Assembly (NCBI GenBank): GCA_022566015.1
Contig: JADFJT010000001.1
Span: 29,143 to 93,142 of the forward strand
Length of the DNA stretch: 64,000 nt
From: Pseudomonadota bacterium
Lineage (GTDB): Bacteria > Pseudomonadota > Gammaproteobacteria > GCA-001735895
Reading direction: 5' to 3'
This document shows positions 25,943 to 51,135 of this stretch, piece after piece. The notes beneath the pieces are model-generated. The model saw nothing but the letters and a program-made list of their open reading frames with translations, ran no database searches and was not told where the DNA came from. Position 1 is the stretch's first letter. Each line of letters begins with the position of its first letter. Both the position numbers and the translations under genes were made by a program.

Positions 25943-25952
25943 GTGATCACAA
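25943..25952. promoter_or_regulatory. TGTGATCACA palindrome (copy 1 of 6)
   Basis: TAATGTGATCACAAAC in the GATase1/gntR intergenic region. Confidence 0.5.
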
Positions 25953-26049
25953 ACTTTCAATTTGGTCAAGAACGATTTATTATCATTTATAGTTTCCCGT
26001 CTAATTTTGTGATTAAATATTAATTAATCTCCCTGAAACCACTAATAAT

Positions 26050-26760
26050 ATGCAAGCATCTAAATCTACTAATCTTGAATTATTGATGCTGGAAAGGGCC
26101 GCGTCGCAGAACACCAATCAATGGGTTTACCAGTTACTACGCACTAATTTGCTGTGCGGAAAAGTTCAGCCAGGTCTTCCGCTGACGATTAGAGGAGTTG
26201 CTGAAGCGCTGGGTGTGAGCCCGATGCCGGTACGAGAAGCCTTTCATCGGCTAGCTTGTGAAGGCGCGGTCGAGGTAAAAAATAATCGTCGCGTGATCGT
26301 GCCAATAATGACCGCAGAAAAATTCAGCGAGTTATGCGACCTGAGGATATTACTCGAAACTCACGCCGCACAAAGCGCTTTACCTTATATTAGAGATCCG
26401 GATATAGTTAGCCTGGAGCTTATTGATGGCAAGATTGACGAAGCGGTCCAGGAAGGCAATGTTGAAAACATGAGCCTGCTCAATCAGGATTTTCATCGTA
26501 CCCTGTATAGCGCCAATCCCTTCCAGATTGTCGTACCCTTGATTGAAAGCCTGTGGCTTCAGCTTGGGCCCTTTTCCAGGATAGCTATCAGTAAACTAGA
26601 GAAAATATACATCGTCGATCGGCACGTCGAGGCAATAGCCGCCCTCAAACAGCAAAATTCGTTTGCTTTGCGGCGCGCTATCGAAGCCGATATCCGCGAC
26701 GGCATTGCTTCCATTAATTCTGTTGAGGGCATCCACAATTATTTCGAGGGTGTCGCCTGA
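26050..26760 (+). CDS. GntR-family (FCD-domain) transcriptional regulator
   Basis: wHTH RGVAEALGVSPMPVREAFHRLACEGAV plus C-terminal FCD-like helical domain. Confidence 0.8.
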   Translation: MQASKSTNLELLMLERAASQNTNQWVYQLLRTNLLCGKVQPGLPLTIRGVAEALGVSPMPVREAFHRLACEGAVEVKNNRRVIVPIMTAEKFSELCDLRILLETHAAQSALPYIRDPDIVSLELIDGKIDEAVQEGNVENMSLLNQDFHRTLYSANPFQIVVPLIESLWLQLGPFSRIAISKLEKIYIVDRHVEAIAALKQQNSFALRRAIEADIRDGIASINSVEGIHNYFEGVA

Positions 26761-26787
26761 TTCGAGCCTGGCAAAGCGCAGTATTTC

Positions 26788-26795
26788 GTGATCAC
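26788..26795. promoter_or_regulatory. GTGATCAC palindrome (copy 2)
   Basis: ATTTCGTGATCACTTTAA upstream of the GS-like gene. Confidence 0.5.
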
Positions 26796-26842
26796 TTTAA
26801 ACACAAAAATCAGAACTCAATCGGAGACTGGAATAGTTATTT

Positions 26843-26852
26843 GTGATCACAT
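26843..26852. promoter_or_regulatory. TGTGATCACA palindrome (copy 3)
   Basis: TTATTTGTGATCACATAG, 33 nt upstream of the GS-like start. Confidence 0.5.
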
Positions 26853-26884
26853 AGTAAGAAGAACTATTCACCGAAGGCATATAT

Positions 26885-28246
26885 ATGAAGCAACTTTCGA
26901 GCAGCCAGTTAAATAGAGAAATAATAGATTTAATTCAAAATCACCCCGAAATTGACGAATTTGAAGTGCTTGCGATTGACTTAAGTGGTCATTTTTACGG
27001 TAAACGCTATCCGATTGCCAGTTTGAAATCTTTTGCTAGCGAAGGACTCGCATTTCCAAGGAGCGCTATCGTTATGAACGCACTGGGGGAACCGCTAGAA
27101 GGTATTTACTATGGAGAAGGTGATGGCGACCCCGATGCGCAGTTTTCTCTGATTCCAGGCACTTTGTCGGTCAACGACTGGGGTAACAAGCCCCGCGCCC
27201 AGATAATGGCCACTGCTTCTAGCGGCAAGGAAGCCACGTTTTTTGAACCCCGTAACCTGCTAAAGAAAGTCCTGCAAGCCTACCAGACCAAAGGCTGGCA
27301 TCCGACCGTTGCCTTCGAACTCGAATTTTTCCTGTTCTCCCGCAAACGCGATGACCAGGGTTTGATCCAGATCGTACGAAACCCCAAGACAGGCCGCCCT
27401 GACTCGCCGACTCTGTTGTCCAACACCCGTATTTCCGATTTTGAACGGGTAATAGACAACATCATCGAAGCCTGTAACCAACAAAACATCGAGACAGGAG
27501 CCGTTTCGGCTGAAATGGGTGCTGGACAGTTCGAAATTAATTTTAACCACCATAGTGATGTGATGCGCGCGGCCGATGAAACCTGCCTGTTTAAACGTAC
27601 CGTGATCGAGACCGCCAAAAAACACGGCATGATGGCAACCTTCATGGCCAAACCCTTGCTCGATCAGCCGGGGAATGGAATGCACATGCATATCAGCGTA
27701 CTCGATGACAAAGGAGAAAATATTTTTAATGCGGGCAACAAGCCACAGCAGCGATTGCTGCATGCGATAGGCGGGCTACTCGATACGATGCCCGCGGCTA
27801 TGTCTTTTTGGGCACCGAATATTAATTCTTATCGCCGCTATTCAGGTGGTAACAGTTGCTCTCCGGTAAGCCTGAGTTGGGGCCATGAAAATCGCACCGT
27901 CGCGTTTCGTATTCCACTGGCAAAGGATGGCGCCTGGCGTGTGGAAAACCGGGTCCCTGGCGCCGATGCTAACCCTTACCTGGCTATGGCGGTTTCGCTC
28001 GCTGGCATGCTGCATGGCATGAATCATAAGCTAGATCCCGGTAAACCTTGCGACGGATCGGTGGAAAACGGGGACGAGTATCTACCGCTTAGCCTGAGTT
28101 CGGCGCTTGCTATCTCTATTGGTAGCGAAGTACTGATCGATATTCTCGGCCGCGATTTCATCGAACTATACTGCCAACACCGCAAAGCCGATAAAGCGGC
28201 TTTCGAGCAATTTATCAACGCACGGGAATACGACTGGTATCTTTAA
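26885..28246 (+). CDS. Glutamine-synthetase-family protein (gamma-glutamyl-polyamine synthetase, PuuA-like)
   Basis: 453 aa with GS catalytic-domain motifs (MHMHISV, NxYRR-like NSYRRY). Confidence 0.75.
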   Translation: MKQLSSSQLNREIIDLIQNHPEIDEFEVLAIDLSGHFYGKRYPIASLKSFASEGLAFPRSAIVMNALGEPLEGIYYGEGDGDPDAQFSLIPGTLSVNDWGNKPRAQIMATASSGKEATFFEPRNLLKKVLQAYQTKGWHPTVAFELEFFLFSRKRDDQGLIQIVRNPKTGRPDSPTLLSNTRISDFERVIDNIIEACNQQNIETGAVSAEMGAGQFEINFNHHSDVMRAADETCLFKRTVIETAKKHGMMATFMAKPLLDQPGNGMHMHISVLDDKGENIFNAGNKPQQRLLHAIGGLLDTMPAAMSFWAPNINSYRRYSGGNSCSPVSLSWGHENRTVAFRIPLAKDGAWRVENRVPGADANPYLAMAVSLAGMLHGMNHKLDPGKPCDGSVENGDEYLPLSLSSALAISIGSEVLIDILGRDFIELYCQHRKADKAAFEQFINAREYDWYL

Positions 28247-28287: not shown

Positions 28288-29214
28288 ATGAATAACGACG
28301 AATTCACTAATAGTGTTTCAATGCACTCTAACCTGTTTGGATATATGGGTGCATCCTTAAGCCGAAATACAGACGATGCTGATGTGTTCGTGGTTGGCTT
28401 GCCCTACGACCTTGCGACTACTGGACGCGCCGGAACACGTAGCGGCCCAACGGCTATTCGCCAGGCTAGCGGCAATCTGCGCTGGGAAGCAAAGCGCTGG
28501 CCCTGGAATTTTTGCGTATTCGATCGTCTGCGAATCGCCGACTATGGCGATCTGGAATTTCCGGCAGGTAACCACAAGAGCCTGTTCGAACAGATCGAGC
28601 AACATTATGGCACATTGCTCGCAGCCGGAAAAACTACTCTAAGTTTTGGCGGCGACCACTTTGTGACCCTGCCGTTATTGCGTGCGCATCATAAGGCGTA
28701 CGGCAAGCTCGCGCTGATTCATTTCGACGCACATACCGATACCTACTCAGAATCAGGTTCGACCTACAACCATGGCAGCATGTTTTTCCATGCACCGAAA
28801 GAAGGAATCATCGACCCAGCCAAAAGCATTCAGGTAGGCATACGCACCGAATATGACGAAGCCACGCACGAATTCCAGGTCATCAGCGCTTCCCGTGCCA
28901 ACGATCTAACGGCCGAGCAAATAATCGAGCAGATCAGCGCACGCGTCGGTGATTCGCCCTGTTACCTGACTTTCGATATCGACTGCCTGGATCCAGCCTA
29001 CGCGCCCGGAACCGGCACCCCGGTAATCGGTGGTCTGACGACCGACCGCGCACTAAAAATCCTGCACGGCCTGCAAGGTCTGAATCTGGTCGGTATGGAT
29101 ATAGTCGAAGTCGCACCTTCGTACGATCACGCGGAAATCACCGCGCTGGCGGCTGCGACCCTGGGCTTGGAGATGCTGTATGTGTTCGCGGCTAAAGGGA
29201 ATAGCAAATTTTAA
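28288..29214 (+). CDS. Ureohydrolase of the arginase/agmatinase family (agmatinase / guanidinobutyrase-like)
   Basis: Mn-binding motifs GGDH, DAHTD and DIDCLDP. Confidence 0.8.
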   Translation: MNNDEFTNSVSMHSNLFGYMGASLSRNTDDADVFVVGLPYDLATTGRAGTRSGPTAIRQASGNLRWEAKRWPWNFCVFDRLRIADYGDLEFPAGNHKSLFEQIEQHYGTLLAAGKTTLSFGGDHFVTLPLLRAHHKAYGKLALIHFDAHTDTYSESGSTYNHGSMFFHAPKEGIIDPAKSIQVGIRTEYDEATHEFQVISASRANDLTAEQIIEQISARVGDSPCYLTFDIDCLDPAYAPGTGTPVIGGLTTDRALKILHGLQGLNLVGMDIVEVAPSYDHAEITALAAATLGLEMLYVFAAKGNSKF

Positions 29215-29847: not shown

Positions 29848-31344
29848 TTAGGAATTCGCCACCTCAGGTAACACGGACGCAAGCACATCGATACCGTTTC
29901 TAAGTATTTCAGGCGGAACACTCGCAAAACCCAGCACCAAGCCACCGCGCTTTGGCGGGTGTTGGTAGCAGCTGGACAAAGGCATGATGTCGATTCCCCG
30001 GGAAGCCGCGGACTCAGACACGGCCACATCATCTATGCCCTCTGGCAACCAGCCTATCAGGTGAAATCCCGCATTGGTTGGTGAGACATCAAGCAAACCA
30101 TCGAGTTTCGAGTGCGCCGCTTCAAGCAAGGCATCCTGGCGTTCTTTATAAATCTTACGCATGCGGCGAATATGTCGTGCAAAATGCCCCTCCGTGATGA
30201 AATTCGCCACCGCCGCCTGCAAGTGTGTTGGCGGACCTTTCGAAATAATACCAATGGCGGAAGTAAAAGCTTCCGACAGACTCGGCGGAATTACCAGATA
30301 GCCAAGACGCAATGAGGGGAAAAGAACCTTGCTGAAAGTTCCGATATAGATCGTACACTCATGCTGATCGAGCCCCTGCATCGCTGGCAATAGCTGGTCG
30401 ATATAGCGAAATTCACTATCGTAATCATCTTCTATCAACCAAGCATCCCTCTGGCGTGCCCATTCGAGAATTTCCAGACGACGCGAGAACGGCATGACCA
30501 TGCCGAGTGGAAGCTGGTGTGAGGGCGTTAGGTAAGCGAGCCGGGCATTTGGTTCCAGCGCGCAACCTGCTGTAACGTCGAGACCGTGTTTATCGACTGG
30601 CACTGGTATCAAATTTAAGCCCGCAGCTACAAATGCGCCTCGAGCCCCAACGTATCCGGGCTCTTCAACCCACACCGAATCACCAGGATCGAGAAGCATA
30701 TTGGCGACCAACCCAAAGGCCTGTTGCGCTCCTGCTACGATAATAACCTGTTCCCAACGACAGGTTATACCACGAGCGCTCGCGAGATAGGATGCGATCG
30801 CTTTTCGTAAGGGTCGGTATCCAGCCAGTTCTCCATAGCCCATTTTCCCATCATCAAGCCTGTGCCACTGGCGTGCAAGAACCTTTGCCCAGATTTTGAA
30901 GGGGAATTGTTCCAGTCCAGGAACGCTGTGAACAAAGGAGCGTGCATGAGAATAGCCTGAATTATCCTGAGCGTCGGCGATCTTGAGCCCGCACCTGGAA
31001 AGGGATGCAGCAGAAAGAGGTTTTTCTACCCCTGATAATTTCTTGGTGGCTGCTGGTTGCAATAGCTCATCGATGATTTGCGACGCAACGTAGGTTCCAG
31101 AGCCTCAGCGGCTGGACAAATAACCTTCGGCTATTAACTGATCGAACGCATGTCTGACCGTTGTTCTTGATACTTTGAGGTCGTACATCAATTCGCGTGT
31201 CGAAGGAATCCGTGTCCCCGAAGCAAGTTCTCCGGAAATAATTAAGCTGCGTAAAGTATCGTAAATCTGATGGTAAAGCTGCACGGTGGAATTTCGGCTC
31301 AGATTTATTGCATCTAAAAATGCGCCATCGGGGGATTTGGACAT
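29848..31344 (-). pseudogene. MocR/GabR-family regulator (GntR HTH + class-I aminotransferase-like domain) interrupted by an in-frame TGA at 31105-31107
   Basis: HTH ORF 31105-31344 and aminotransferase-domain ORF 29848-31062 are in the same frame. The junction reads ...AEGYLSSR-TGA-GSGTYVAS..., the conserved MocR linker. Confidence 0.7.
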
Positions 31345-31492
31345 GATCTTCTTATGTTAAAGCATGCAAATTGGGCTTCCCATTTTGTTCTATAGTGGGT
31401 CTTGACACAAGCCCGCTTTAACAACAAGCTACATCATAATAAGCACCAGGCGGGTAAACACTATTATCGGGGACTCCCCCGAGGAAAACACT

Positions 31493-32986
31493 ATGATCAA
31501 GCTAAAAACATTTATCGTCACGGCTGTGCTGGCCGTGTTGCCGATATCACTGGCACAGGCGGCGGGCGGGACTTTCCTTACGGCTCACGATCTTGGCTTC
31601 GGCGGTTCAGAAAATGCCGATCCGATCCACCCGAATCGCTTCTGGCAGGTCACCGAAAAGACAATGAACCGTCTAGTCCGGCCATCCGCGGCGGGAGAAC
31701 CTACCCCGGATCTGGCTGTGTCCTGGTCGGCAAATGATGCTGCGACCGAATGGACGTTTAAGCTCCGCGCAGGCGTCAAGTTCCACGATGGGACTGATTT
31801 TGATGCAGCCGATGTAGTCGATTTGCTGAATCGAATTAAAGATCCTGAACTCGACTCACCCGTCGCTTCCGTCCTTGCGGTGATGGAGAAAGTCGAGGCC
31901 ATCGATCCTTTGACCGTGAAAATATCCTTGTCTGCGGCTCATGCGGATTTTCCCATGCTGATCATGGATTATCGTATTCGGATGACCCCCTCAGGTTCAG
32001 GCGATACGATTGGGAAGACAGGCATCGGCACCGGCCCGTTTATTCTGGAAACTCTCGACCCTGAGGGTACGACAGTGCTGAAGGCCAATCCCGACTATTG
32101 GGAAGGGGCACCGGCTGTTGAAACAATTAAGATCATCGCCATTCCAGACGCACAGGCTCGTGTCCAGGCGTTGCTTAGCGGCCAGATAGATATGCTTCGT
32201 CATATTTCGGCACAGGAGAAGGTGCTCTTCGAAAACAATCCGAAATTTAAAATTCAACAGGTCAACACGGGTGACTGGCTGGCGGCTATCGTTTTTAGAA
32301 CCGACATCGAACCTTTCACCGATGTTCGCGTCCGTAAGGCGGTGCGTATAGCTGCCGATCGCGAGGCTATGATTAATCTGGTGCTAGGCCCCGGTGGCGG
32401 TGTTGTCACATGTGACCACCCGGTATGGACAGGCGATCAATACCGCGCACAGATCGAATGCCCACAACAAATTGATGAGGCTAAACGGTTGCTTGCTGAA
32501 GCGGGCTATCCCGATGGTATCGAAATTGATGTAGTCACCAGTGACCTCAGAGCCCTCTGGGTCGATATGGTCCAGGTTTACCAACAGCAGGTTGCGGCGG
32601 CGGGGATCAAGATTAATCTGGTGAAGGCCCCGGCGGACGGATATTGGTCGGACGTGTGGATGAAAAAACCAGTTGTGACCACGAGTTGGGGACAGCGTCC
32701 TGCTGATCAGGTGTTCAATGAAGCTTATCGCAGTACCGCTTCCTGGAATGAGAGCTATTGGAAAAATCCCGAATTTGATCGAAAGTTGGATCAGGCTCGC
32801 CAGGAACTCGATCGCGCGAAACGCACGGCTCTTTACCAGGACCTCCAAAAAATGCTTTTTGAAGAGGGCGGAACTTTCACCCCGTTCCATGTGAATCAGG
32901 TGGTCGTGACGAGCGCTCGGGTAACGGGACTTCCGGTAATGTTCGACGATGGCGTTCAATACCACAATGTAAGTGTTGGCGAGTAA
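31493..32986 (+). CDS. ABC transporter substrate-binding protein, family 5 (Dpp/Opp/Nik-like)
   Basis: 497 aa with signal peptide and SBP_bac_5-like sequence. Confidence 0.8.
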   Translation: MIKLKTFIVTAVLAVLPISLAQAAGGTFLTAHDLGFGGSENADPIHPNRFWQVTEKTMNRLVRPSAAGEPTPDLAVSWSANDAATEWTFKLRAGVKFHDGTDFDAADVVDLLNRIKDPELDSPVASVLAVMEKVEAIDPLTVKISLSAAHADFPMLIMDYRIRMTPSGSGDTIGKTGIGTGPFILETLDPEGTTVLKANPDYWEGAPAVETIKIIAIPDAQARVQALLSGQIDMLRHISAQEKVLFENNPKFKIQQVNTGDWLAAIVFRTDIEPFTDVRVRKAVRIAADREAMINLVLGPGGGVVTCDHPVWTGDQYRAQIECPQQIDEAKRLLAEAGYPDGIEIDVVTSDLRALWVDMVQVYQQQVAAAGIKINLVKAPADGYWSDVWMKKPVVTTSWGQRPADQVFNEAYRSTASWNESYWKNPEFDRKLDQARQELDRAKRTALYQDLQKMLFEEGGTFTPFHVNQVVVTSARVTGLPVMFDDGVQYHNVSVGE

Positions 32987-33105
32987 ACACTGTTCGCTGT
33001 TGGTTAATTCGGGCACAACGTAAAAACAGGAGCGCAAGGAGTTTCCCTGGTCGGTAACCCCTTGCGCATCCCTCCCAGTTTCAGCCAGTCGTTGGGAAAA
33101 TAAAT

Positions 33106-34029
33106 TTGAAACTCGTTAGCTATAATATCCGTTTTGGTCTCGGCCTCGATCAGAAAGTTGATCTAGAACGCATTGCTGATACCGTAAAAGACGCCGACAT
33201 CATCGCTCTGCAGGAAGTCGAACGTTTTTGGAAGCGAAGTGGCATGACGGATCAGCCGGAAATAATTTCAAGTTATCTGAAACAATACTATTGGCTTTAC
33301 TTCCCGGCCTTTGATGTAGATGCAAGCGAGGTCAATGGCGACGGGTCCATTTTAAATCGACGCCGCCAATTTGGTCCCATGGTACTTTCTCGATGGCCCA
33401 TTCGCATGGCGCGTTACATCGTGTTCCCGAAATTGGGCACGATAGACAGTTTGGCTATGGATACGGGGGCTATAGAGTGCGTCGTCGATACGCCTTCGGG
33501 ATCTTTAATGGTTTATTCCCTTCATCTATCTGCGGTTTCAAGCCGCGACCGCCTGATGCAGGTTGATCGTTTATTGGAATTCTACCGCAACGCCCCGGTG
33601 AGCGGCGGTTCCTGGACGGGGGGTGGTGAGTGGGTTACCGACCCAGTCGAGAGCAAACATATGGCTGAGCTGAACTGGAGTAATGATGAGTCTATTCCAC
33701 TGATACCCAAAGAAGCTGTAGTGATGGGTGACTTTAACATGATACCCGATAGCGAAGAATACAACCGGATGGTTAGCGCGCCGGACCATAGCTTTGGTCG
33801 GGTTGGGCATACGGACAGTTTTCTCGATAGCTGGACTGTGGCCAGGGAACGTTCAGATGAACGTGTCAGTTGGTTCCCCGATCCCTCCGAGCGTAAACCT
33901 GGCTATCCTATATGCCTGGATTACTGCTTCATATCGCCTTACCTGTCACAAAAGGTCCAGCGCGCCTGGATCGAGCAGGATTCGATTGGCTCGGATCATA
34001 AACCTTATTGTGTTGAACTGGACTTCTGA
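33106..34029 (+). CDS. Endonuclease/exonuclease/phosphatase (EEP)-family protein
   Basis: N-terminal VSYNIRFG...DADIIALQEV and C-terminal GSDHKP motifs of the EEP fold; no signal peptide; TTG start. Confidence 0.7.
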   Translation: MKLVSYNIRFGLGLDQKVDLERIADTVKDADIIALQEVERFWKRSGMTDQPEIISSYLKQYYWLYFPAFDVDASEVNGDGSILNRRRQFGPMVLSRWPIRMARYIVFPKLGTIDSLAMDTGAIECVVDTPSGSLMVYSLHLSAVSSRDRLMQVDRLLEFYRNAPVSGGSWTGGGEWVTDPVESKHMAELNWSNDESIPLIPKEAVVMGDFNMIPDSEEYNRMVSAPDHSFGRVGHTDSFLDSWTVARERSDERVSWFPDPSERKPGYPICLDYCFISPYLSQKVQRAWIEQDSIGSDHKPYCVELDF

Positions 34030-34124
34030 ATTCATGCGTAATGCCCCACCTCCTTGCTATCTGATGACGTGATAGCGACACTAGTAAATCGCTTGATCGC
34101 TGCAGGCAAGCGAACGGGGGCATT

Positions 34125-35075
34125 ATGATCAAGCTTTTCCTGCAAAGAATTGTGCTCGGATTACTCACGCTGGTGTTTGTCTCCGGCATTGTGTTCGTTG
34201 CGGTAGAAGCCCTCCCCGGTGATGCCTGTACGGCCTATCTGGGGAGGATGGCCAAGGGAACACGTCTGGAAAACTGCCGCAGGGATTTCGGGATCGAGCG
34301 TCCCGCCCTGACACGGTACGCCGAATGGACGCTGGGGACGCTGCAGGGCGATTTCGGTATGTCCTTGAGCCGCGATAAGCCGATCTCCGACATCATCGGC
34401 ACACGTCTTCGAAATACACTGATTCTTGGTTTGAGCGCAACTCTTATCGGCGTGCCACTAGCAATTTTTCTGGGAATTATTGCGGGTCTCTGGCGAGATC
34501 GACCGCTGGATCTGTGGATTTCCACCATCGCGATCTTCGCTATGACAATTCCCGAGTTCGTGAGCTCAACACTGTTGATTTTGGTATTTAGCGTGTGGCT
34601 TGGCTGGCTTCCAGGCATCGTAACAACGCCGCCCAACGCGCCGCTAACCGAGTTCCTGTCAGATATTATCCTTCCTATCATCGCGCTCGCGCTGGTTATG
34701 ACGGCTCACATCCTGCGCATGGTTCGTACCAGCGTGATCGACGTCATGGGTAGTGATTACGTCCAGATGGCGCGGCTTAAGGGTGTTCCTTACTGGCGCA
34801 TGGTGTTTCGGCATGTGTTGCCAAACGCCCTGTTGCCAACGATCAATCTTGTCGCTTTGACGATTGCATGGTTATTGGGAGGCGTCGTCGTCATCGAGGT
34901 GGTGTTTAATTATCCCGGCCTCGGTCGCCTGACGATTGATGCTATTTCGGATCGCGATCTCGCACTGGTTCAAGCCATTGCTCTCGTATTAGCGGCTGTC
35001 TACATTGGTCTTAACCTGTTTGCGGATTTGTTGACATTGATTGTTAATCCGAGGCTCAGGACGATGCGGCATTAA
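34125..35075 (+). CDS. ABC transporter permease (DppB-like)
   Basis: 316-aa multi-TM protein with an EAA-like loop. Confidence 0.8.
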   Translation: MIKLFLQRIVLGLLTLVFVSGIVFVAVEALPGDACTAYLGRMAKGTRLENCRRDFGIERPALTRYAEWTLGTLQGDFGMSLSRDKPISDIIGTRLRNTLILGLSATLIGVPLAIFLGIIAGLWRDRPLDLWISTIAIFAMTIPEFVSSTLLILVFSVWLGWLPGIVTTPPNAPLTEFLSDIILPIIALALVMTAHILRMVRTSVIDVMGSDYVQMARLKGVPYWRMVFRHVLPNALLPTINLVALTIAWLLGGVVVIEVVFNYPGLGRLTIDAISDRDLALVQAIALVLAAVYIGLNLFADLLTLIVNPRLRTMRH

Positions 35076-35077
35076 TC

Positions 35078-35965: not shown

Positions 35966-35967
35966 AA

Positions 35968-41310: not shown

Positions 41311-41311
41311 T

Positions 41312-43041: not shown

Positions 43042-43135
43042 TAACCTCCGAAATGAAATTCAATTTTTTACATCGAATTCAACTTTTAAATACGAAGCCC
43101 ATGTTCGTCGATCCGCATGATCACTGTAAGGAATT

Positions 43136-44563
43136 TCAGCCACCCCAGGCTTGATGCTGATCACCCGGTTTATCTCGATCTAATTCGTCGTAGAAGTCAC
43201 GCATCGCCAACTCGATTCCTTTACGCAAAATACCGACCATTTCGTCTATTTGTTCACGCGTAATCGTTAATGGTGGCGACATGACACACATGTTAACCAG
43301 GGGGCGGACAATCAATCCGAGCGCCTGGCAGTGCCGATCGATTCGATTACCAATTTCATAATCCATCGCCAGATTGGTATCACCCTGATTTAATTCGCAT
43401 TCGACACAAGCCATCAACCCGATACCACGCACATCGCTGACGATTGGAATATCTCGCAAGGTCTGTAACTGTTCCTGCATATAAGGGCCGACTTCCTGCA
43501 CATGCTCGAATAATTTTTCACGTTTCATGATTTCCAGATTTTTGAGACCAGCAGCAGCGGCCACCGGGTGACCGGAATAGGTAAAGCCATTTGAAAATAC
43601 CGCGCTATCGCCACCGAATGCTTTGACCTCGTCTAACAGACGATCCGATACTAGAAATGCACCCATGGGTATATAAGCCGAGGTCATTCCTTTCGCAGTG
43701 GTAATAATATCTGGCTGAATGCCAAAAACTGCTTCCGAAGCAAAGCAATGACCGAGCCGACCGAATGAAGTAACTACTTCATCCGATAAATACAGCATGT
43801 CGTATTTGCGGCATATCTCCAGGCAACGTTGGTGATAACCTTTTGGCGGCACAATGACACCACCTGACGCTAAAATCGGCTCGGCGACAAATACAGCACA
43901 TCGGTCCGCACCAACCGCGAGAATGCAATCCTCCAGGTTGGCAACACATTGGTCTAGAAATTCGCTATCCTTCTGCCCCTCAGCTTTCCATAAGGAATGC
44001 GGGGCCGATATGTGATGTATCAGCCCTTCGACAAAATCAAGTGAGTTCCTGTCGCGCTCTTTACCCGACACACTGGCACTTAAATAGGTACTGCCGTGAT
44101 ACCCCTTCTTATGCGAGATAATGTGCTTTTTCTCAGGTTTGCCGCGAACATTGTTGTAAAATTGTACAAACCGCAAAGCTGAATCAACGGCGGTCGATCC
44201 TCCGGTAGTGAAGAATACATGATTTAAGTCCCCCGGTGCCTCGGCGGCGATGGCTTGACTAAATTTCACCGCGGGACCAGTCGTTAAAGACCAGGGCGAG
44301 GTGTAAGACAAGCGCATTATCTGGTCGTATATAGCACGCGCCATCTCTTCGCGACCATGTCCGATATTCACACACCACATGCCGCCTGGGCCATCGAGCA
44401 ATCGATTACCGTCACTATCGTATACGTAAACGCCATCGCCCCTTTCAATGACTGTACGTTTATTTTTACCCAGCTTGACAATATCGTCCCAGGGGTGAAT
44501 GAACTGATTATCGGCCTTCACTAAATCTGCAGTTACTCTTGACACGGCCCATTTTCCTCGCAA
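43136..44563 (-). CDS. Class III (omega) aminotransferase
   Basis: 475 aa; PLP-fold motifs with Schiff-base Lys in TTAKG and DEV...GFGR. Confidence 0.8.
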   Translation of the reverse strand: MRGKWAVSRVTADLVKADNQFIHPWDDIVKLGKNKRTVIERGDGVYVYDSDGNRLLDGPGGMWCVNIGHGREEMARAIYDQIMRLSYTSPWSLTTGPAVKFSQAIAAEAPGDLNHVFFTTGGSTAVDSALRFVQFYNNVRGKPEKKHIISHKKGYHGSTYLSASVSGKERDRNSLDFVEGLIHHISAPHSLWKAEGQKDSEFLDQCVANLEDCILAVGADRCAVFVAEPILASGGVIVPPKGYHQRCLEICRKYDMLYLSDEVVTSFGRLGHCFASEAVFGIQPDIITTAKGMTSAYIPMGAFLVSDRLLDEVKAFGGDSAVFSNGFTYSGHPVAAAAGLKNLEIMKREKLFEHVQEVGPYMQEQLQTLRDIPIVSDVRGIGLMACVECELNQGDTNLAMDYEIGNRIDRHCQALGLIVRPLVNMCVMSPPLTITREQIDEMVGILRKGIELAMRDFYDELDRDKPGDQHQAWGG

Positions 44564-44609
44564 ATTAAAGTTAGATCAGTGGAATCAAATTCTATATGTA
44601 TATTAATAA

Positions 44610-44649
44610 TAGTCAACTATTTCAACTATATACGATTTTTAGTTGACTA
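44610..44649. promoter_or_regulatory. Inverted repeat TAGTCAACTA-N20-TAGTTGACTA in the divergent aminotransferase/tetR promoter region
   Basis: Read directly; candidate TetR operator. Confidence 0.4.
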
Positions 44650-44708
44650 AACACTCAAAAATATTTACAGTGCTAGCATAAATAAGAAAACTAACAGGCG
44701 AACTATTA

Positions 44709-45362
44709 ATGCCAGTTACCGTGACAGAAAAAAATCTCTCCAGCCGCAGTCGATCGGTTCAATCTGAATTTCGAAAACGTCAGTTGATCAACGCTACTAT
44801 CGACTGCATCGATACACTCGGCCTCTCACAAACCACGATCGCGCGCATAGCCGATCGAGCCGGCGTATCGCAAGGTATTGTCGTATTTCACTTTCAGCGC
44901 AAGGAAAATTTACTCGAAGAAGCTTTGCGAGAATTGAGTCGGGAATACGTCGAGTGTTGGAAAAATGCGCTCGACGGCGCCCGGGCAGACCCCGTATCCC
45001 AACTTTGCGCTCTGGTAGAGGCGAGCTTTGCTCCCGCCATATGCAACCGTAAAAAAATTAGTGTGTGGTATGCCTTCTGGGGGGAGTCTCGTTCTCGCCC
45101 CATATATAACAAGATTTGTGGCAATAACGATTTAGATTATTCAACGACACTATTATCGCTCTGCGAAGCAATCGAGGCGTACAGCGCAGCTGCTTTAAAA
45201 GCTCAGACCGCAGCGTTGAGTATCGAAGGCATGATTGACGGTCTGTGGCAAAAATTTTTAGTTGGCCCTAGTGGATTCAAACGTCAGCAAGCTATCGCTT
45301 CGGTCCTCGAATTGATTAAAATCATATACCCGGGAGAGCGACAAAATATTTACAGTAATTAA
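44709..45362 (+). CDS. TetR-family transcriptional regulator
   Basis: N-terminal HTH LSQTTIARIADRAGVSQGIVVFHF. Confidence 0.8.
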   Translation: MPVTVTEKNLSSRSRSVQSEFRKRQLINATIDCIDTLGLSQTTIARIADRAGVSQGIVVFHFQRKENLLEEALRELSREYVECWKNALDGARADPVSQLCALVEASFAPAICNRKKISVWYAFWGESRSRPIYNKICGNNDLDYSTTLLSLCEAIEAYSAAALKAQTAALSIEGMIDGLWQKFLVGPSGFKRQQAIASVLELIKIIYPGERQNIYSN

Positions 45363-45472
45363 AACCAACAAGTTAATTTGATCACTATATTAAAATAAAA
45401 TTTAGCACGCTAAAAAATATTTGACTCTATTAAGATTTTTAGTAGTTACAATAAATGGCATTGTTAATTTTC

Positions 45473-45482: not shown

Positions 45483-45657
45483 TAATAAAAAGAATATTGC
45501 GATCCTATGGGTTCATTAAAATAACCAGCGGATCGCCAATATGTTAATGTCAAATATCATTGGCATGAGGAGTGCAGCAGCATTACTGTTTAAACGTCAG
45601 TAAAGCTAACGTTAAATGATTTGAGCACAGTGATGTTCAAAATACTAATCCAACTGT

Positions 45658-46785
45658 ATGGAGAAAAAAATGAAAAGATCTAGAATTCCATTTAAAGACA
45701 CAATTGTCGGCGCCGCTACAATCGCGCTGATTGTCGGGTCGAGCGTGGCCAGTGCGGCGGGTGAATTAAACGTAACCAACTGGGCGGAGTATATTGCCGA
45801 AGATACTATCGAAAATTTCGCCAAGGAATTTGATGTGAAGGTAGTCTATGACACCTATGATTCTGCCGAGGCCATCGACGCCAAGCTGTTGGCAGGTAGT
45901 TCCGGCTACGACGTCGTCAGCCACTCCAGTTCCGATGTTGGTCGCCTGATTCCAGCCGGAATACTTCAGAAACTAGATAAATCCAAGATACCCAACCTCA
46001 AGCACATGAGCTCTGAAGTCATGGGTAAGTTGAGCGACAACTGGGACCCCGGCAACAAATACATAGTTCCTTTTATGTGGGGTACGCATGGCGTAACCTA
46101 TAATGCGGCACTGGTCAAGAAAACCTATCCGGGTGCGCCTATCGGCTCCCTCGATTTGATATTCTTACCCGAGCATATGAAGAAACTGGCTAAATGCGGT
46201 GTGTCATTCCTCGATTCGCCTGGCGACATCATCCCGATGGCCCTGGCCTATTTGGGTTTAGACCCCTCTTCCACCGTAAAAACCGATTACAAAGAAGTCG
46301 CAATTCTGCTGAAAAAGATACGTCCTTACATCAAGACGTTTGATAATTACGCCTATCAGAGAATGCCGCAGCGCGAATTCTGTGTAGCTGTGACCTGGGG
46401 GCCCGATGGATTGCTGGCCATGTCAGGCGCCGAGGAAGCCAATACAGGTGTGGTACTGGACTTCTTCCTGCCACCCGGACAGGGAGCAGCACAATTATGG
46501 GTCGATGGCTGGGTCATTCCGGCGGATGCCAAAAATATCGAAAATGCTCACCTGTTCCTGAACTACTTGAGCCGTCCGCAAGTAGGCGCCAATGACAGTA
46601 ATTACACCTGGTATGCGACTGCCAATAAGGACGCCCTGAGCTTGATCGACGAAGAAGTCACTAGCAGTCCGGCAGCATTTCCACCGCCAGATCAGGTCGC
46701 TATGATGTATACCGTGGTAAATTTACCTCCGAAAATTGAACGGTTACAGACCAGAACCTGGACTAATTTTAAAGCCGGTAATTAA
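45658..46785 (+). CDS. potF: Putrescine/spermidine ABC transporter periplasmic binding protein
   Basis: 375 aa with signal peptide, PotD/PotF-family sequence, and the SBP-ATPase-permease-permease order of potFGHI. Confidence 0.8.
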   Translation: MEKKMKRSRIPFKDTIVGAATIALIVGSSVASAAGELNVTNWAEYIAEDTIENFAKEFDVKVVYDTYDSAEAIDAKLLAGSSGYDVVSHSSSDVGRLIPAGILQKLDKSKIPNLKHMSSEVMGKLSDNWDPGNKYIVPFMWGTHGVTYNAALVKKTYPGAPIGSLDLIFLPEHMKKLAKCGVSFLDSPGDIIPMALAYLGLDPSSTVKTDYKEVAILLKKIRPYIKTFDNYAYQRMPQREFCVAVTWGPDGLLAMSGAEEANTGVVLDFFLPPGQGAAQLWVDGWVIPADAKNIENAHLFLNYLSRPQVGANDSNYTWYATANKDALSLIDEEVTSSPAAFPPPDQVAMMYTVVNLPPKIERLQTRTWTNFKAGN

Positions 46786-46868
46786 AATCAGCTGGAATAA
46801 GCCGGAGTGATTAGTAATAATCACTCCGGTTTTTTTATTTTTATTGTTAATTCCGGAACTATTGTTGA

Positions 46869-48014
46869 GTGTCTGACCAAATAAAATTCACTGGCCGCCC
46901 ATGGATGGACCCCGATCAACAGCCCTTTATCAAGATTCAAAGCCTGAGTAAACACTTTGGCTCCTTTACCGCAGTCGATAGCGTAGACCTCGAAATATAT
47001 AAGGGCGAATTATTCTCCCTGCTCGGTGCTTCGGGTTGTGGCAAGACTACGCTGTTACGCATGCTCGCCGGATTCGAAACTCCAAGCTCGGGTACTATAC
47101 ATATCGACGGCGTCGATATGACCGACGTACCTCCTTACGAAAGGCCGGTGAACATGATGTTTCAGTCCTATGCGCTGTTCCCGCACATGAGCGTAGAACA
47201 GAATGTCGCCTATGGGCTGCATCGTGACGGCATCGATAAGCAGGCGATCAAAACACGGGTGGAAGATATGCTTGCAATGGTCGAGCTTACCGATTTTCGC
47301 AAGCGCAAACCCCACCAGTTATCTGGTGGCCAAAAACAGCGCGTAGCGCTCGCTCGTTCGCTGGTTAAACAGCCCAAGGTTTTATTACTCGACGAGCCGC
47401 TCGCCGCGCTGGACAAGCGCCTGCGCGAGAATACCCAGTTCGAACTGATGAAAATACAAGACCAACTCGGTGTCACATTTATCGTCGTCACTCATGACCA
47501 GGAAGAGGCCATGACGCTGTCAACCCGCATTGCGATGATGGATGCAGGCCGATTCATACAAATCGGCACGCCGATTGAAATCTATGAGTTTCCAGAATCA
47601 CGTCTGGTCGCTAATTTTATTGGTAATACCAACATGTTCGAAGGTCGCGTCACGGAAAACGGGGTCGATCACATCGTCGTGCAAAGCAAACAGCCCGCCT
47701 GTGAGTTTTTTATCGATCACGGGATTTCCATTCAGGAAGGCACCAGAGTATGGGTAGCGATACGCCCAGAGAAATTTAGAATATCGAAATCGGCTCCTGA
47801 ATCAGGCCAGACCAATCAGATGAAAGGCGTTATCGACGACATCGGATATCTAGGAAAACTATCCATCTACCGGGTGAGGATCGGTGACGATAAAATCATC
47901 CAAATTACCTCGCCCAATCTGTCAAGGCCCAAGCACGGGGAGTCGCTGCTCGACTGGAGTGATGAAATTTATCTCAGTTGGGATGCGTCCAGTGTGGTGG
48001 TATTAACTAAATGA
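46869..48014 (+). CDS. potG: Polyamine ABC transporter ATPase
   Basis: Walker A GASGCGKTT, LSGGQKQR, and a C-terminal TOBE-like domain. Confidence 0.85.
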   Translation: MSDQIKFTGRPWMDPDQQPFIKIQSLSKHFGSFTAVDSVDLEIYKGELFSLLGASGCGKTTLLRMLAGFETPSSGTIHIDGVDMTDVPPYERPVNMMFQSYALFPHMSVEQNVAYGLHRDGIDKQAIKTRVEDMLAMVELTDFRKRKPHQLSGGQKQRVALARSLVKQPKVLLLDEPLAALDKRLRENTQFELMKIQDQLGVTFIVVTHDQEEAMTLSTRIAMMDAGRFIQIGTPIEIYEFPESRLVANFIGNTNMFEGRVTENGVDHIVVQSKQPACEFFIDHGISIQEGTRVWVAIRPEKFRISKSAPESGQTNQMKGVIDDIGYLGKLSIYRVRIGDDKIIQITSPNLSRPKHGESLLDWSDEIYLSWDASSVVVLTK

Positions 48015-48970
48015 TTAATACCAATCAGGTCGGTAACTCTGAGCTAGTCGCTGCAGGACCGGCCATAATAAAACGCCTGTCTCGCTCGCTGCAACATCGC
48101 TGGAAATCGATCGTTATCTTCATTCCCTATTTCTGGTTATTTCTGTTTTTCCTCACGCCATTTTTTATCGTATTTAAAATCAGCCTGGCAGAGCCCGCTA
48201 TCGCCAGTCCACCTTTTTTACCAATGATCGAATGGGCCGACGAAGGCATATTGCGGATAAAACTGGTATTCGAAAATTTCGTCTACCTGTGGGAGGACGA
48301 CCTATACTTCAAAACCTATTTGAATTCACTGAAAATATCTTCGATATCAACCCTGCTGTGCTTACTCCTCGGTTACCCGATGGCCTATGCAATCGTGCGC
48401 GCCAGGCATCCCTACAAACATATTTTATTAATGTTTATAATTCTGCCTTTCTGGATCCCATTTCTGCTACGTGTATACTCCTTGATGGGATTGCTAGCTG
48501 ACCGTGGAACGATCAATAACCTGCTGATTTACCTGGGTTTTATAGACGAACCCATTCGGTTACTGTACGCACCCTTCGCGGTATACGTGGGCATCGTTTA
48601 TACCTACCTGCCATTTATGATCTTGCCGCTTTACGCCAATATGGAAAAGCTGGATGCGAGCTTGCGCGAGGCGGCGGCAGACCTGGGTGCCAGACCTGTG
48701 GCGACATTTATTACCGTAACACTGCCGTTGACAACGCCAGGCATAATTGCAGGCTCATTACTGGTTTTCATTCCCGCTACGGGAGAATTTATCATCCCGG
48801 ACCTGCTCGGCGGCGGCAATGTACTGATGATTGGCCGTTTACTCTGGGACGAATTTACCGCCAACCATGACTGGCCGGTGGCTTCCGCGGTAGCAATAAT
48901 ATTGTGTATAGTCCTGGTTTTGCCCATGATGCTTTACCAGCGGACGCAAGGAAAGCAGGTGGAAGATTAA
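48011..48970 (+). CDS. potH: Polyamine ABC transporter permease
   Basis: 319-aa 6-TM permease; 4-nt overlap with the upstream gene. Confidence 0.8.
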   Translation: MINTNQVGNSELVAAGPAIIKRLSRSLQHRWKSIVIFIPYFWLFLFFLTPFFIVFKISLAEPAIASPPFLPMIEWADEGILRIKLVFENFVYLWEDDLYFKTYLNSLKISSISTLLCLLLGYPMAYAIVRARHPYKHILLMFIILPFWIPFLLRVYSLMGLLADRGTINNLLIYLGFIDEPIRLLYAPFAVYVGIVYTYLPFMILPLYANMEKLDASLREAAADLGARPVATFITVTLPLTTPGIIAGSLLVFIPATGEFIIPDLLGGGNVLMIGRLLWDEFTANHDWPVASAVAIILCIVLVLPMMLYQRTQGKQVED

Positions 48971-48973
48971 GAC

Positions 48974-49819
48974 ATGCACAATACTGGACAACGTTCAAGA
49001 TTCTTAATTACTGTCACCTGTTTTGGCCTGGCGTTCCTTTATATACCCATGGCTCTGCTGGTATTTTATTCGTTTAATTACTCCAAAATAGTCCCGGTGT
49101 GGGGCGGGTTTTCGACGCGCTGGTATACTAAGCTGTTCGAAAGCGAAGAGGTCTGGTCAGCGGTCATATTAAGCTTCAAAATTGCTACTGTCACCGCCTG
49201 CTTCGCGACCCTAATGGGAACCCTGGCTGGGCTGGCACTGGTACGTTTTGGACAATTTAAAGGTCGCACATTATTTACCGGCATGATTACAGCCCCGCTG
49301 GTAATGCCCGAAGTTATTACCGGATTATCGCTATTACTGCTGTTTATTACGCTCGGTGATTTGATAGGCTGGCCGGAGAGACGCGGGTTCACCACGATTA
49401 CCATCGCCCATATTACCTTTTCGATGGCCTACGTCGCGATTATCATACAGTCGCGTCTGGCAGGCATGGCCCAGGACCTGGAAGAAGCTGCCCAGGATCT
49501 GGGGGCAAAGCCGTTTCGAGTATTGATCGATATTACAGTACCCTTAATCGCGCCCGGTATGGTAGCGGGCTGGTTATTGTCTTTTACCCTGTCGCTCGAT
49601 GACCTGGTTATTGCCAGCTTCGTAACAGGGCCAGGAGCTGTCACGCTACCGATTCTGATTTATTCGCGGGTGCGTTTAGGCTTGCGCCCCGATATCAATG
49701 CATTGGCGACAATTTTTATCATCGTTGTCGCAACAGCTGCGTTTGTGGCCTGGTGGATTATGTTACGTCAACAAAAAAAGAGGGAGCTAGAAATGCAAAT
49801 GTCGAGTGAAGAGGGCTGA
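48974..49819 (+). CDS. potI: Polyamine ABC transporter permease
   Basis: 281-aa 6-TM permease. Confidence 0.8.
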   Translation: MHNTGQRSRFLITVTCFGLAFLYIPMALLVFYSFNYSKIVPVWGGFSTRWYTKLFESEEVWSAVILSFKIATVTACFATLMGTLAGLALVRFGQFKGRTLFTGMITAPLVMPEVITGLSLLLLFITLGDLIGWPERRGFTTITIAHITFSMAYVAIIIQSRLAGMAQDLEEAAQDLGAKPFRVLIDITVPLIAPGMVAGWLLSFTLSLDDLVIASFVTGPGAVTLPILIYSRVRLGLRPDINALATIFIIVVATAAFVAWWIMLRQQKKRELEMQMSSEEG

Positions 49820-50073
49820 CTAGCAATTTTTTTAAATTAACGCCAATGGGTTGTCACTAATATCGATGTGGCCCAACCACTGAAATATTACCGCTATTTC
49901 GGGGATGAATCGAAGCGGCGGCCCGGCGTTCTGAGAAGGTGCATGAAGTTATTAGCAGTGATTTGATCGCTTGCACCCGTAATAGCCTGGCAACAACTCA
50001 GTAGCTTCACTGTAATTCTCTACCGATATAGACTCTACAGGGAGGAAATTTTATCCCCTACGGGCAACGAAAT

Positions 50074-50997
50074 CTAACCTGGATCGCGCCGCAATGCCTG
50101 ACACATGCAATGCACCCCACCACCGCCCGGTGTGATCATCGCCACGTCCGGGTCGAATATCTCCAGGCCGTGCGCACGAGCCTTCTGTTTTAACACTTCG
50201 CTCTTTTCGGGCAACAGGATTCGATCGTTACCGAGAGCGACAACATTACAGCCGAGATCCAGGGTATCCTTGAAAGGCACCGAAATGATTTCGATTTGTT
50301 TCGATTTCAACCATCGCACCACCTCATCGTCGGTCGATTCGAGGCATACTGCCGCAAGCTTCGGTGCCAGCATCACCACCATCAAATCGATGTGGACGTA
50401 GAAAGGATCGAGGTCGATCAACTTTACTTCCCAACCCTCGGCTTCAAACCAGCTTTTTAACTGATTGGCCGATTGCAGCTGACTGCGCCCCTCGTCGCCT
50501 TCCCAGCCGATCAAAACCGTACCAGGTTCGATGACATTGAAATCACCACCTTCGAAGGTACCCGCGGTAACATAATCGTAAATCGGAATTCCGAGTCGCG
50601 CGTAGGTTTCGATAGCGCGGTAATTTTCGCCCCGGCGCCACCAGTTTGCCATGCTGGTAATGATCGCACCAAAAGGTGTCATTACCGACGAATCACGCGC
50701 AAAAATCTGATAAGGCAAAGCCGCGTCGGGTTCATGCTGGTGTACCTTCACGCCCGCAGACTGGTAAGCCGAAACCATTTCGGCATGCTGCTGCTTCGCC
50801 ACCTGTGCATCGAACGGGTAGTCACGGCGGATACTTTTTTTCGATACCGAACTGGTTTCAAGCCATCGGTAATGATCGGCCGGCCCAAGCAGGACATCCC
50901 GCAATACACCGTATTCAGAGTCGACACACCAATCATCCAGAATCGGCGTTCCACCACCTTCATGGCGGGTGCGTAAATTGAAAGCTGCATGCATCAA
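50074..50997 (-). CDS. Amidinotransferase/DDAH-superfamily (guanidino-group-modifying enzyme fold) protein
   Basis: C-terminal catalytic Cys in GGGGVHCMCQ; about 300 aa; the fold is shared with DDAH, arginine deiminase and amidinotransferases. Confidence 0.6.
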   Translation of the reverse strand: MMHAAFNLRTRHEGGGTPILDDWCVDSEYGVLRDVLLGPADHYRWLETSSVSKKSIRRDYPFDAQVAKQQHAEMVSAYQSAGVKVHQHEPDAALPYQIFARDSSVMTPFGAIITSMANWWRRGENYRAIETYARLGIPIYDYVTAGTFEGGDFNVIEPGTVLIGWEGDEGRSQLQSANQLKSWFEAEGWEVKLIDLDPFYVHIDLMVVMLAPKLAAVCLESTDDEVVRWLKSKQIEIISVPFKDTLDLGCNVVALGNDRILLPEKSEVLKQKARAHGLEIFDPDVAMITPGGGGVHCMCQALRRDPG

Positions 50998-51012
50998 TAC
51001 ACCGCATCATAT

Positions 51013-51020
51013 GTGATCAC
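51013..51020. promoter_or_regulatory. TGTGATCAC palindrome (copy 5)
   Basis: CATATGTGATCACTTTCG, 16 nt upstream of the DDAH-like start. Confidence 0.5.
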
Positions 51021-51125
51021 TTTCGAACGGGAAACGCTATCATGCTGACCGTTGACCTGTCAAACACATTGCCAAATATCCCCCAAGCGAAAGGCTTTCA
51101 GCGTCTGTTGACGCCAGAAGTTTTT

Positions 51126-51135
51126 GTGATCACAA
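51126..51135. promoter_or_regulatory. TGTGATCACA palindrome (copy 6)
   Basis: TTTTTGTGATCACAATAC in the divergent region upstream of the aminotransferase. Confidence 0.5.

Follow-up and report, generated by a model that had tools for sequence, protein, structure and literature searches.

A conserved GATC-centred palindrome as candidate operator of a GntR/FCD regulator beside polyamine-catabolism genes of an uncultured gammaproteobacterium

Does a short palindrome that recurs beside the polyamine- and agmatine-catabolism genes of an uncultured bacterium act as an operator, and if so, which protein reads it? The question is raised by the sequence GTGATCAC in a 64,000-nucleotide (nt) stretch of contig JADFJT010000001.1 (assembly GCA_022566015.1, positions 29,143 to 93,142 of the forward strand), here termed the window and numbered from 1 to 64,000. 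The host is an uncultured marine-type gammaproteobacterium, and some homologues of its proteins are labelled Candidatus Azotimanducaceae. We examined where the palindrome lies, how it is kept in orthologous loci and which transcription factor accompanies it. The sites exist, are non-random and conserved, and are fixed in position relative to conserved promoter boxes. We consider it likely that the extended sequence wTTGTGATCACAAw is the operator of a locally encoded repressor, a GntR-family protein with an FCD domain, that controls genes for the uptake and breakdown of polyamines and agmatine.

Occurrence and conservation of the palindrome

Exact matches to GTGATCAC start at positions 25943, 26788, 26843, 45473, 51013 and 51126 of the window and nowhere else. 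Dinucleotide-preserving shuffles (n=100) contained a mean of 0.78 and a maximum of four copies, and none of the 100 reached six, which bears out the statement of an initial annotation that the 8-mer is expected about once. The copy number by itself is nevertheless unremarkable, because 256 8-mer palindromes are possible and several equal GTGATCAC: AATCGATT occurs seven times, and GAGCGCTC, ATAATTAT and AAATATTT occur six times each. Enrichment was accordingly dropped as a sole argument, and what follows is based on the two properties that do distinguish the palindrome, its location and its conservation. Intergenic sequence makes up about 13.4% of the window in a greedy map of open reading frames (ORFs), yet all six copies are intergenic, an outcome with a chance probability of 0.134^6, or about 6e-6; the other frequent palindromes have just 0–2 of their 5–7 copies between genes. 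The six copies share four of the 33 gaps of at least 50 bp, namely those between the glutamine amidotransferase gene (GATase1) and gntR (divergent), between gntR and a glutamine-synthetase-like (GS-like) gene, between a TetR gene and potF, and between a DDAH-like gene and an aminotransferase gene (divergent). All four adjoin genes of polyamine or agmatine catabolism. The annotation had likewise placed every copy between genes and next to functionally related ones; this holds, as do the gene identities it gave, at the level of Pfam families.

Around the cores no extended repeat unit is found. The flanks are A/T-rich and follow roughly wwTwwtGTGATCACawwAww in a position weight matrix (PWM) built from 61 distinct orthologous sites, and every full site has GATC at its dyad, without variation across orthologues. 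Of the T-rich 5' and A-rich 3' context proposed earlier, the A/T-rich flanks therefore stand, while the exact extended 12-mer, TTGTGATCACAA, matches solely at 51124. It recurs at four further places with one mismatch, and at up to two mismatches it is not enriched (five observed against 2.8 expected). An extra match at 32673 was dismissed, as it lies inside a gene.

The full sites, the weaker sites and the predicted promoter elements of the window are as follows.

25941-25952: site 1, ATGTGATCACAA, predicted distal operator in the divergent GATase1/gntR region; core starts 107 nt before the gntR ATG
25988-25993, + strand: TATAGT, -10-like box of the putative gntR promoter
26005-26019: half-site TTTTGTGATTAAATA, core GTGATTAA at 26009-26016; 15 nt past the -10-like box and 41 nt before the gntR ATG
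26786-26797: site 2, TCGTGATCACTT, predicted distal operator of the GS-like promoter; 27 nt past the gntR stop codon
26841-26852: site 3, TTGTGATCACAT, predicted proximal operator; core 42 nt before the GS-like ATG
45376-45387: weak site TTTGATCACTAT, core TTGATCAC at 45378 with one core mismatch; 16 nt past the TetR stop codon
45471-45482: site 4, TCGTGATCACAA; 185 nt upstream of the potF-like ATG
51011-51022: site 5, ATGTGATCACTT, predicted proximal operator of the DDAH-like gene; 15 nt downstream of the -10-like box
51036-51063, - strand: predicted DDAH promoter, TTGACA (51063-51058), 16 nt, GATAGC (51041-51036)
51108-51136, + strand: predicted promoter of the (GS-like2)-aminotransferase-DAO operon, TTGACG, 17 nt, CACAAT; found by promoter scan
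51124-51135: site 6, TTGTGATCACAA, a perfect 12-mer over the -10 box of the + strand operon; 113 bp from site 5

Orthologues of gntR were collected from nine loci of a scan with one genome per species (75–88% protein identity; L001–L009) and six metagenomic loci (L094–L099), as stretches of 10–20 kb whose intergenic regions were aligned with MAFFT. Wherever the contig reaches, the order of a GATase gene divergent from gntR, followed by the GS-like and arginase-family genes, is kept; the exception is L098, in which the arginase-family gene is cut to a 75-amino-acid (aa) fragment (L098 12289-12516), a further case of decay in this cassette. Pairwise identity in the core columns is 94–100%, compared with 46–50% in the other aligned intergenic columns, and the sites of the gntR locus are thus a clear phylogenetic footprint. 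Site 1 is present in all 14 loci that cover it (L001–L008, L094–L099), 106–107 nt before the gntR ATG as counted from the core start; it is exact in 12, with a single core mismatch in L006 and L007. The start of an intact divergent DAO-like gene is 34 nt away from it in L094. Site 2 is kept 14–32 nt past the gntR stop codon in L001–L009 and L097–L098, and the single lineage L094–L096 has ATGATCAC. Site 3 lies at -37 to -43 from the GS-like ATG except in two lineages (-23 in L001; -67 in L094–L096, where the start was called separately), and the spacing from site 2 is 55 or 65–67 bp. The half-site TTTTGTGATTAAATA, which was not in the earlier list of copies, is also a PWM match and is nearly invariant across orthologues, so that gntR is bordered by three full sites and this conserved half-site in every orthologue. 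Other GTGATCAC copies in these loci are few; they fall within genes, have G/C-rich flanks and are chance copies.

Scanning metagenomes with the DDAH-like protein gave 80 loci, about 20 of which share the synteny of the window: the (GS-like2)-aminotransferase-DAO operon divergent from DDAH, then potIHGF and TetR. Most of these keep a distal site, a proximal site and a site upstream of potF. The distal site, ATTGTGATCACAAAA, corresponds to site 6, does not vary among the 15 orthologous loci covering the position and lies 110–114 bp from site 5. Site 5 itself is kept in most of 16 syntenic loci, two of which have TTGATCAC or TCGATCAC. An exact site lies 162–186 nt upstream of potF in eight of nine orthologous loci; L032 has ATGTTCAC. 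The weak site TTTGATCACTAT, which with a PWM score of 16.4 is the sixth best in the window, takes the position of an exact site after the TetR stop codon in six relatives (L018, L020, L021, L024, L026, L027). The site is lacking from DDAH orthologues of 82–84% identity with a different gene neighbourhood and from every more distant orthologue; the motif thus tracks the gene neighbourhood and not the enzyme. Taken over both loci, the sites are kept in more than 25 orthologous loci of related uncultured gammaproteobacteria.

The connection between the two loci rests on overlapping synteny, since the 10-kb flanks taken from the gntR orthologues end inside a block of OYE, Rieske and aminotransferase genes. 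This block borders the potF locus, and it is reached from the gntR side in L003 and L097–L099 and from the potF side in L017, L024, L026 and L027. By this overlap, the two loci are neighbours throughout the clade. Positional conservation in orthologous gntR and DDAH/potF loci thus supports the view of the initial annotation that one regulon, spread over two loci, has the palindromes as its operators.

Promoter context and the candidate regulator

Several sites stand in a constant relation to conserved promoter boxes. Upstream of gntR, the -10-like box is kept as TATAGT, TATGGT or TATTGG in nine orthologous regions, and the half-site that follows it consists of one good half (TTGTGA) and a degenerate partner. 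Site 3 lies about 5 nt downstream of a weak -10-like AATAGT (26832-26837), which in relatives reads TATAAT, GATAGA, TATATT or TAATAT. In front of the DDAH-like gene, TTGACA and (G/T)ATAGN recur at constant spacing across syntenic loci; this promoter was missed by the consensus scanner because its second hexamer lacks a T at position 6. An offset of 15 nt from a (T/G)ATAG(T/C) box is common to site 5 and the gntR half-site. For the aminotransferase operon, the -35 box is kept as TTGACT/G in syntenic loci, and the CACAAT of the -10 box is the right arm of site 6. The consensus promoter scan supported the promoter at site 6 and no other, and the remaining promoters rest on boxes conserved in the alignments.

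The layout of the gntR locus appears twice in similar form, with sites at -107 and -41 for gntR and at -108 and -42 for the GS-like gene. In the window the latter pair stands at -97 and -42, about one helical turn having been lost between sites 2 and 3. This difference between 55 and about 66 bp is the sole match to a helical turn; a general claim of helical phasing was dropped, as no consistent phase emerges from the spacings of 55, 65–67, 95 and 110–114 bp. The leader of about 175 nt that separates site 4 from the start of potF (45483-45657) contains several blocks conserved across relatives (L017–L027), among them GTGACAGGCTATTCGTCATTATG...TAATGTC, GTTAAGC...GTAAAG and TTCAAAA, and in the window it also carries an inverted repeat, TTGCGATCC...GGATCGCCAA, at about 45507-45541. 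Rfam and tRNA scans of the window gave no match, leaving the leader without a known RNA element.

Which protein would bind these sites? The gntR product combines a GntR-type winged helix-turn-helix (PF00392, 51.6 bits against a cut-off of 27; residues 25–84) with an FCD domain (PF07729, 52.6 bits against 24.3; residues 94–215). It is the sole GntR-family factor in the window, and no other transcription factor has sites on its flanks across all orthologous loci. Both the motif and the recognition helix VSPMPVREA are unchanged among orthologues of 73–89% identity. By a hand alignment with E. coli FadR, positions 38–39 of this helix are Pro-Met where Arg-Thr or Asn/Thr are usual. The other transcription factors of the window, a LysR, a BetI-type TetR and a GGDEF-domain response regulator, are none of them linked to more than one site. 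The TetR at 44709 was considered as the binder and rejected: it adjoins site 4 alone, is absent from the gntR loci and is BetI-like, and it is paired with a divergent aminotransferase/Rieske/OYE cluster. The adjacent FCD-type GntR therefore most probably binds the sites, a proposal that draws on co-localization and agrees with the regulator named by the initial annotation (gene at 26050-26760), given the three sites and the half-site around gntR in every orthologue.

The operator itself can be read as TTGT-GATC-ACAA across the 61 distinct orthologous sites, which fits an A/T-rich palindrome with TKGT/ACMA boxes. Such boxes characterize the FadR subfamily within the family consensus NyGTNxACNy (PMC4494728). 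GT and AC normally stand 2–3 nt apart in the FadR subfamily and typically 4 nt in the HutC subfamily (PMC4494728). A GT-N4-AC core had earlier been taken as the general GntR/FadR pattern; the boxes agree with this, while the 4-nt spacing is atypical for FadR-subfamily operators, a departure from a usual property and not from an absolute requirement.

Among described regulators, the closest match in DNA specificity is AkgR (RSP_0981), a GntR-family protein of Rhodobacter (Cereibacter) sphaeroides whose recognition sequence from chromatin immunoprecipitation sequencing is GTGATCAC (PMC4323418). In this alphaproteobacterium, AkgR activates the tricarboxylic acid (TCA) cycle operons sucCDAB and sdh from two copies 13 nt apart (GTGATCAC-N13-GTGATCAC; PMC4323418). 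The likeness thus lies in an identical core and a shared family, as compared by published description and not by protein sequence; the predicted targets here are polyamine genes instead of TCA-cycle genes, with sites on or after -10 boxes. Two GntR homologues of 36–37% identity, in L010 (Alsobacter) and L011 (Phaeobacter), were tried as links to AkgR and rejected, as the nearby GTGATCAC copies lie in genes with G/C-rich flanks and these regulators stand beside DgoK and are thus DgoR-like.

In architecture, the system resembles that of Atu1419, an FCD-type (VanR-group) GntR repressor of Agrobacterium fabrum that binds identical short 10-mer palindromes over -10 boxes within one catabolic cluster (PMC7797058). 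A second or degenerate palindrome accompanies each of these at a distance of about 109–190 bp, and Atu1419 regulates its own operon (PMC7797058). The two systems share the FCD type, short identical palindromes at several promoters, overlap with -10 boxes, paired distant sites and autoregulation, which here is predicted. They differ in the palindrome, which for Atu1419 is ATGTATACAT (GT-N2-AC), and in the pathway controlled, that of hydroxycinnamate; Atu1419 is, moreover, a demonstrated tetramer that loops DNA and has a folate-derivative effector (PMC7797058). Members of the FadR subfamily more generally (DgoR, LldR, PdhR, ExuR/UxuR, FadR) share the winged helix-turn-helix with an all-helical C-terminal domain, A/T-rich palindromic TKGT/ACMA operators and local catabolic regulons (PMC4494728). 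They act on sugar acids or fatty acids, where the predicted targets here serve amine catabolism. The nearest non-orthologous homologues that were retrieved (36–37% identity) adjoin 2-keto-3-deoxygalactonate kinase genes and are thus DgoR-like. McbR/YncC of E. coli (PDB 4p9f), a regulator with colanic acid and biofilm biology, is the closest homologue of solved structure (E-value 4.6e-17), and its model PRK11414 is the best NCBIfam match; because the score of 79.9 bits lies far below the equivalog cut-off of 225, the gntR product is not an McbR/YncC orthologue.

Proposed regulon and competing explanations

The genes adjoining the sites, with their best profile matches, are listed below.

24851-25567, - strand: class-I glutamine amidotransferase, PuuD/PauD-like candidate (PF00117, 49 bits; Peptidase_C26, 21 bits); predicted target of site 1
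26050-26760, + strand: gntR, 236 aa; candidate repressor with GntR winged helix-turn-helix and FCD domain
26885-28246, + strand: GS-like gene (Gln-synt_C, 310 bits); predicted target
28288-29214, + strand: agmatinase-subfamily ureohydrolase (Arginase, 302 bits; NF002564, 443.7 against a cut-off of 302); predicted target
44709-45362: BetI-type TetR
45658-49819, + strand: potFGHI-like polyamine ABC transporter (SBP_bac_8/1, ABC_tran and TOBE_2, two BPD_transp_1); predicted target
50074-50997, - strand: guanidino-group hydrolase of the DDAH/arginine-deiminase fold (PF19420, 67.6 bits; PF02274, 58.3 bits); predicted target
51443-52834, + strand: class-III aminotransferase, an omega-aminotransferase, SpuC-like (Aminotran_3, 295 bits; NF005682, 746 against a cut-off of 510); predicted target
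52841-54151, + strand: DAO-family oxidoreductase dependent on flavin adenine dinucleotide (FAD), PuuB/PauB-like candidate (DAO, 247 bits); predicted target

Polyamine catabolism of the puu/pau/spu kind employs a GS-like synthetase, a DAO-type oxidase, a GATase-type hydrolase, an omega-aminotransferase and PotF-type uptake. In its gamma-glutamylation form it is controlled by HTH-cupin repressors, PuuR in E. coli and PauR in Pseudomonas aeruginosa, which have unrelated operators. By its domain content, the gene set described here would fit the conversion of agmatine to putrescine followed by polyamine catabolism through gamma-glutamylation and transamination, save for the aldehyde dehydrogenase step. 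The GS-like protein is probably a gamma-glutamyl-polyamine synthetase; it scores under all equivalog cut-offs (184 bits against 650 for the GGputSyn model NF045547). The PotF-like protein reaches 326 bits with the PotF model NF007962, whose cut-off is 636, and the DDAH-like protein lies under all NCBIfam cut-offs. Because several of these proteins fall short of curated cut-offs, their exact substrates are inferred. The arginase-family enzyme scores as an agmatinase, and nothing specific for guanidinobutyrate, which the initial annotation had named, was found. By prediction, a GntR/FCD protein controls the same kind of pathway as PuuR and PauR and appears to be a non-orthologous replacement for them.

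The regulon would consist of four units in one chromosomal neighbourhood, which together would provide polyamine uptake, formation of putrescine from agmatine, and breakdown of the gamma-glutamylation/transamination type. These are the divergent GATase1 gene (ancestrally a DAO-like-GATase1 operon); the gntR, GS-like and agmatinase genes; potFGHI; and the DDAH-like gene with the divergent (GS-like2)-aminotransferase-DAO operon. Each TTGT/ACAA half would be contacted by the winged helix-turn-helix of one subunit of a dimer. Without inducer, the bound protein would block RNA polymerase at core promoter elements, and a small molecule related to the pathway would bind the FCD domain and release it. 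TTTTGTGATTAAATA is probably a weaker operator through which GntR would repress its own gene. The second site of each promoter region, 55–113 bp away, may serve the divergent promoter or cooperative repression. We infer the binder, the sign of regulation, the effector and any cooperativity, and favour repression as the likely mode of action because sites 3, 5 and 6, like the gntR half-site, lie over conserved -10 boxes or immediately past them.

Several points weigh against this model. GT and AC are 4 nt apart at every site, not the usual 2–3 nt of the FadR subfamily, and AkgR, which reads the same core, is an activator with an N13 pair, whereas the copies here stand singly, 55–67, 95 and 110–114 bp apart from start to start. 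The protein was assigned to the sites by co-localization, which is also expected if another factor regulated gntR and its neighbours, and the motif scan covered only the 64-kb window and fragments of related genomes. Promoter assignments are consensus matches backed by conservation and not mapped transcription starts, and at potF the site lies as far as 162–186 nt upstream of the start codon. The GS-like, GATase, PotF-like, DDAH-like, DAO and GntR proteins all score below curated equivalog cut-offs. Finally, an aldehyde dehydrogenase domain, which the pathway requires for its PuuC/PauC step, was not found among the scanned ORFs of the window, a few ORFs beyond 54 kb lying outside the scan; the gene may be encoded elsewhere in the genome.

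Some of these points would equally suit a genuine operator that is bound by a factor encoded elsewhere, such as a HutC-subfamily GntR or a global regulator of nitrogen or polyamine metabolism, with gntR as a merely regulated gene. The GT-N4-AC core is typical of HutC and not of the FadR subfamily, and co-localization in the small part of the genome that was scanned does not tell a regulator from a regulated neighbour. The GATC centre, however, does not fit the HutC consensus GTMTAKAC. Three full sites and a half-site surround gntR in every orthologue, and a site between a -10-like box and the ATG is typical of autoregulation; moreover, the LysR, TetR and GGDEF regulators are each linked to one site at most, and DDAH orthologues in other contexts lack the site. 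We therefore regard an outside binder as unlikely. Quite unlikely, too, is that the adjacent GntR binds the sites and mainly activates, at least from the distal positions near -55 (sites 1, 2 and possibly 4). AkgR activates its targets through the same 8-mer, activation would be possible from the far-upstream potF site and from distal sites that precede the proximal ones by about 66 bp, and the promoters have non-consensus -10 boxes. Against this stand the classic repressor positions, on or just past -10 boxes, that sites 3, 5 and 6 share with the gntR half-site, and the absence of the AkgR arrangement of two copies 13 nt apart; the FadR/FCD examples DgoR and Atu1419 are also repressors, though CitO is an activator of the FCD family.

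That the repeats have no regulatory role and represent a chance cluster, the remnant of a dispersed repeat or mobile element, or sites related to restriction or methylation (TGATCA is a BclI-type site) is extremely improbable. Other palindromes do reach the same copy number, and the 12-mer is not enriched at up to two mismatches, but the placement of six out of six copies between genes and the lack of a repeat unit around the cores do not fit. Nor do invariant cores at fixed positions amid flanks of about 50% identity, in lineages whose proteins are 73–89% identical and which are thus not near-identical strains. Repression by the local GntR/FCD protein, the explanation we prefer, could have a further layer, in which repressor occupancy and Dam methylation exclude each other at the sites and the protein belongs to a distinct FCD sub-lineage (S-P/Q-M-P-V-R-E) with AkgR specificity and an amine-derived effector in place of a classical organic acid. 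As in Dam-sensitive operators of the Pap/Agn43 type, GATC lies within the presumed binding site. We consider the extension by Dam methylation and a distinct sub-lineage very doubtful; if true, it would imply methylation-dependent, possibly heritable or replication-coupled control of polyamine catabolism. No dam gene lies within the sequence examined, and GATC, with 344 copies in the window against 296 +/- 17 in shuffles, is mildly over-represented and not avoided, which is uninformative on Dam.

The regulon proposed here is of a familiar type, a local catabolic system with an FCD-type GntR, a short palindromic operator and autoregulation, and our understanding of how such systems work is unchanged. 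New are the particular regulator, its apparent polyamine/agmatine role in place of a PuuR/PauR-type protein, the 4-nt spacer and the core shared with AkgR. Nothing relevant to the 10-mer or to a GntR regulator of putrescine catabolism turned up in the literature, and no paper describing the regulon was found in the library searched. For this uncultured marine gammaproteobacterial group, the analysis offers a testable regulon with a regulator, an operator, seven or eight sites and four transcription units. It suggests that polyamine and agmatine catabolism is here placed under a GntR/FCD protein instead of a PuuR/PauR type, adds a second, unrelated context for a GTGATCAC specificity so far reported for AkgR only, and documents an FCD-associated operator with a 4-nt spacer. 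This may be of use for annotation and for the study of dissolved organic nitrogen use in the sea.

Gene decay and variable neighbouring regions

Comparison with the relatives also revealed three internally deleted genes in a 30-kb stretch of the window.

25568-25942, - strand: remnant of a DAO-like FAD oxidoreductase gene; in tblastn just residues 15–68 and 377–418 of the 433-aa L094 protein
41312-41817, - strand: remnant of a second OYE oxidoreductase gene dependent on flavin mononucleotide (FMN); residues 1–39 and 55–156 of a 689-aa protein
51209-51441, + strand: deletion scar of a second GS-like gene (GS-like2); some 1.1 kb is lost, leaving approximately 45 codons of its beginning and 30 of its end

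The DAO-like gene is intact in L008 and L094–L096, where it lies between site 1 and the GATase gene; its decayed counterpart in the window puts 375 bp between the site-1 promoter and the GATase gene. GS-like2 is the intact first gene of the aminotransferase-DAO operon in L017, L020–L027, L041 and L067 and has gone without trace from L015, L028, L031 and L032, and in the window its scar leaves about 300 bp between the site-6 promoter and the aminotransferase gene. The second OYE gene is intact in L003, L098 and L099. Together, the three deletions suggest that this lineage is still losing genes.

Between the two regulated loci, a block at 29848-38055 encodes an aminotransferase, a family-5 solute-binding protein, an EEP-family protein and a peptide-type ABC transporter. 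It is missing between the agmatinase and OYE genes in L003, L005, L009 and L097–L099, several of which carry other genes there, and the region between the loci is thus variable. The adjoining genes at 39256-45362 encode a Rieske oxygenase, an OYE/FMN + FAD oxidoreductase, a class-III aminotransferase and the divergent BetI-type TetR. This cluster contains no GTGATCAC site and resembles clusters for the demethylation of N-methylated amino acids or betaine; it is probably a separate, TetR-controlled unit between the GntR-linked loci.

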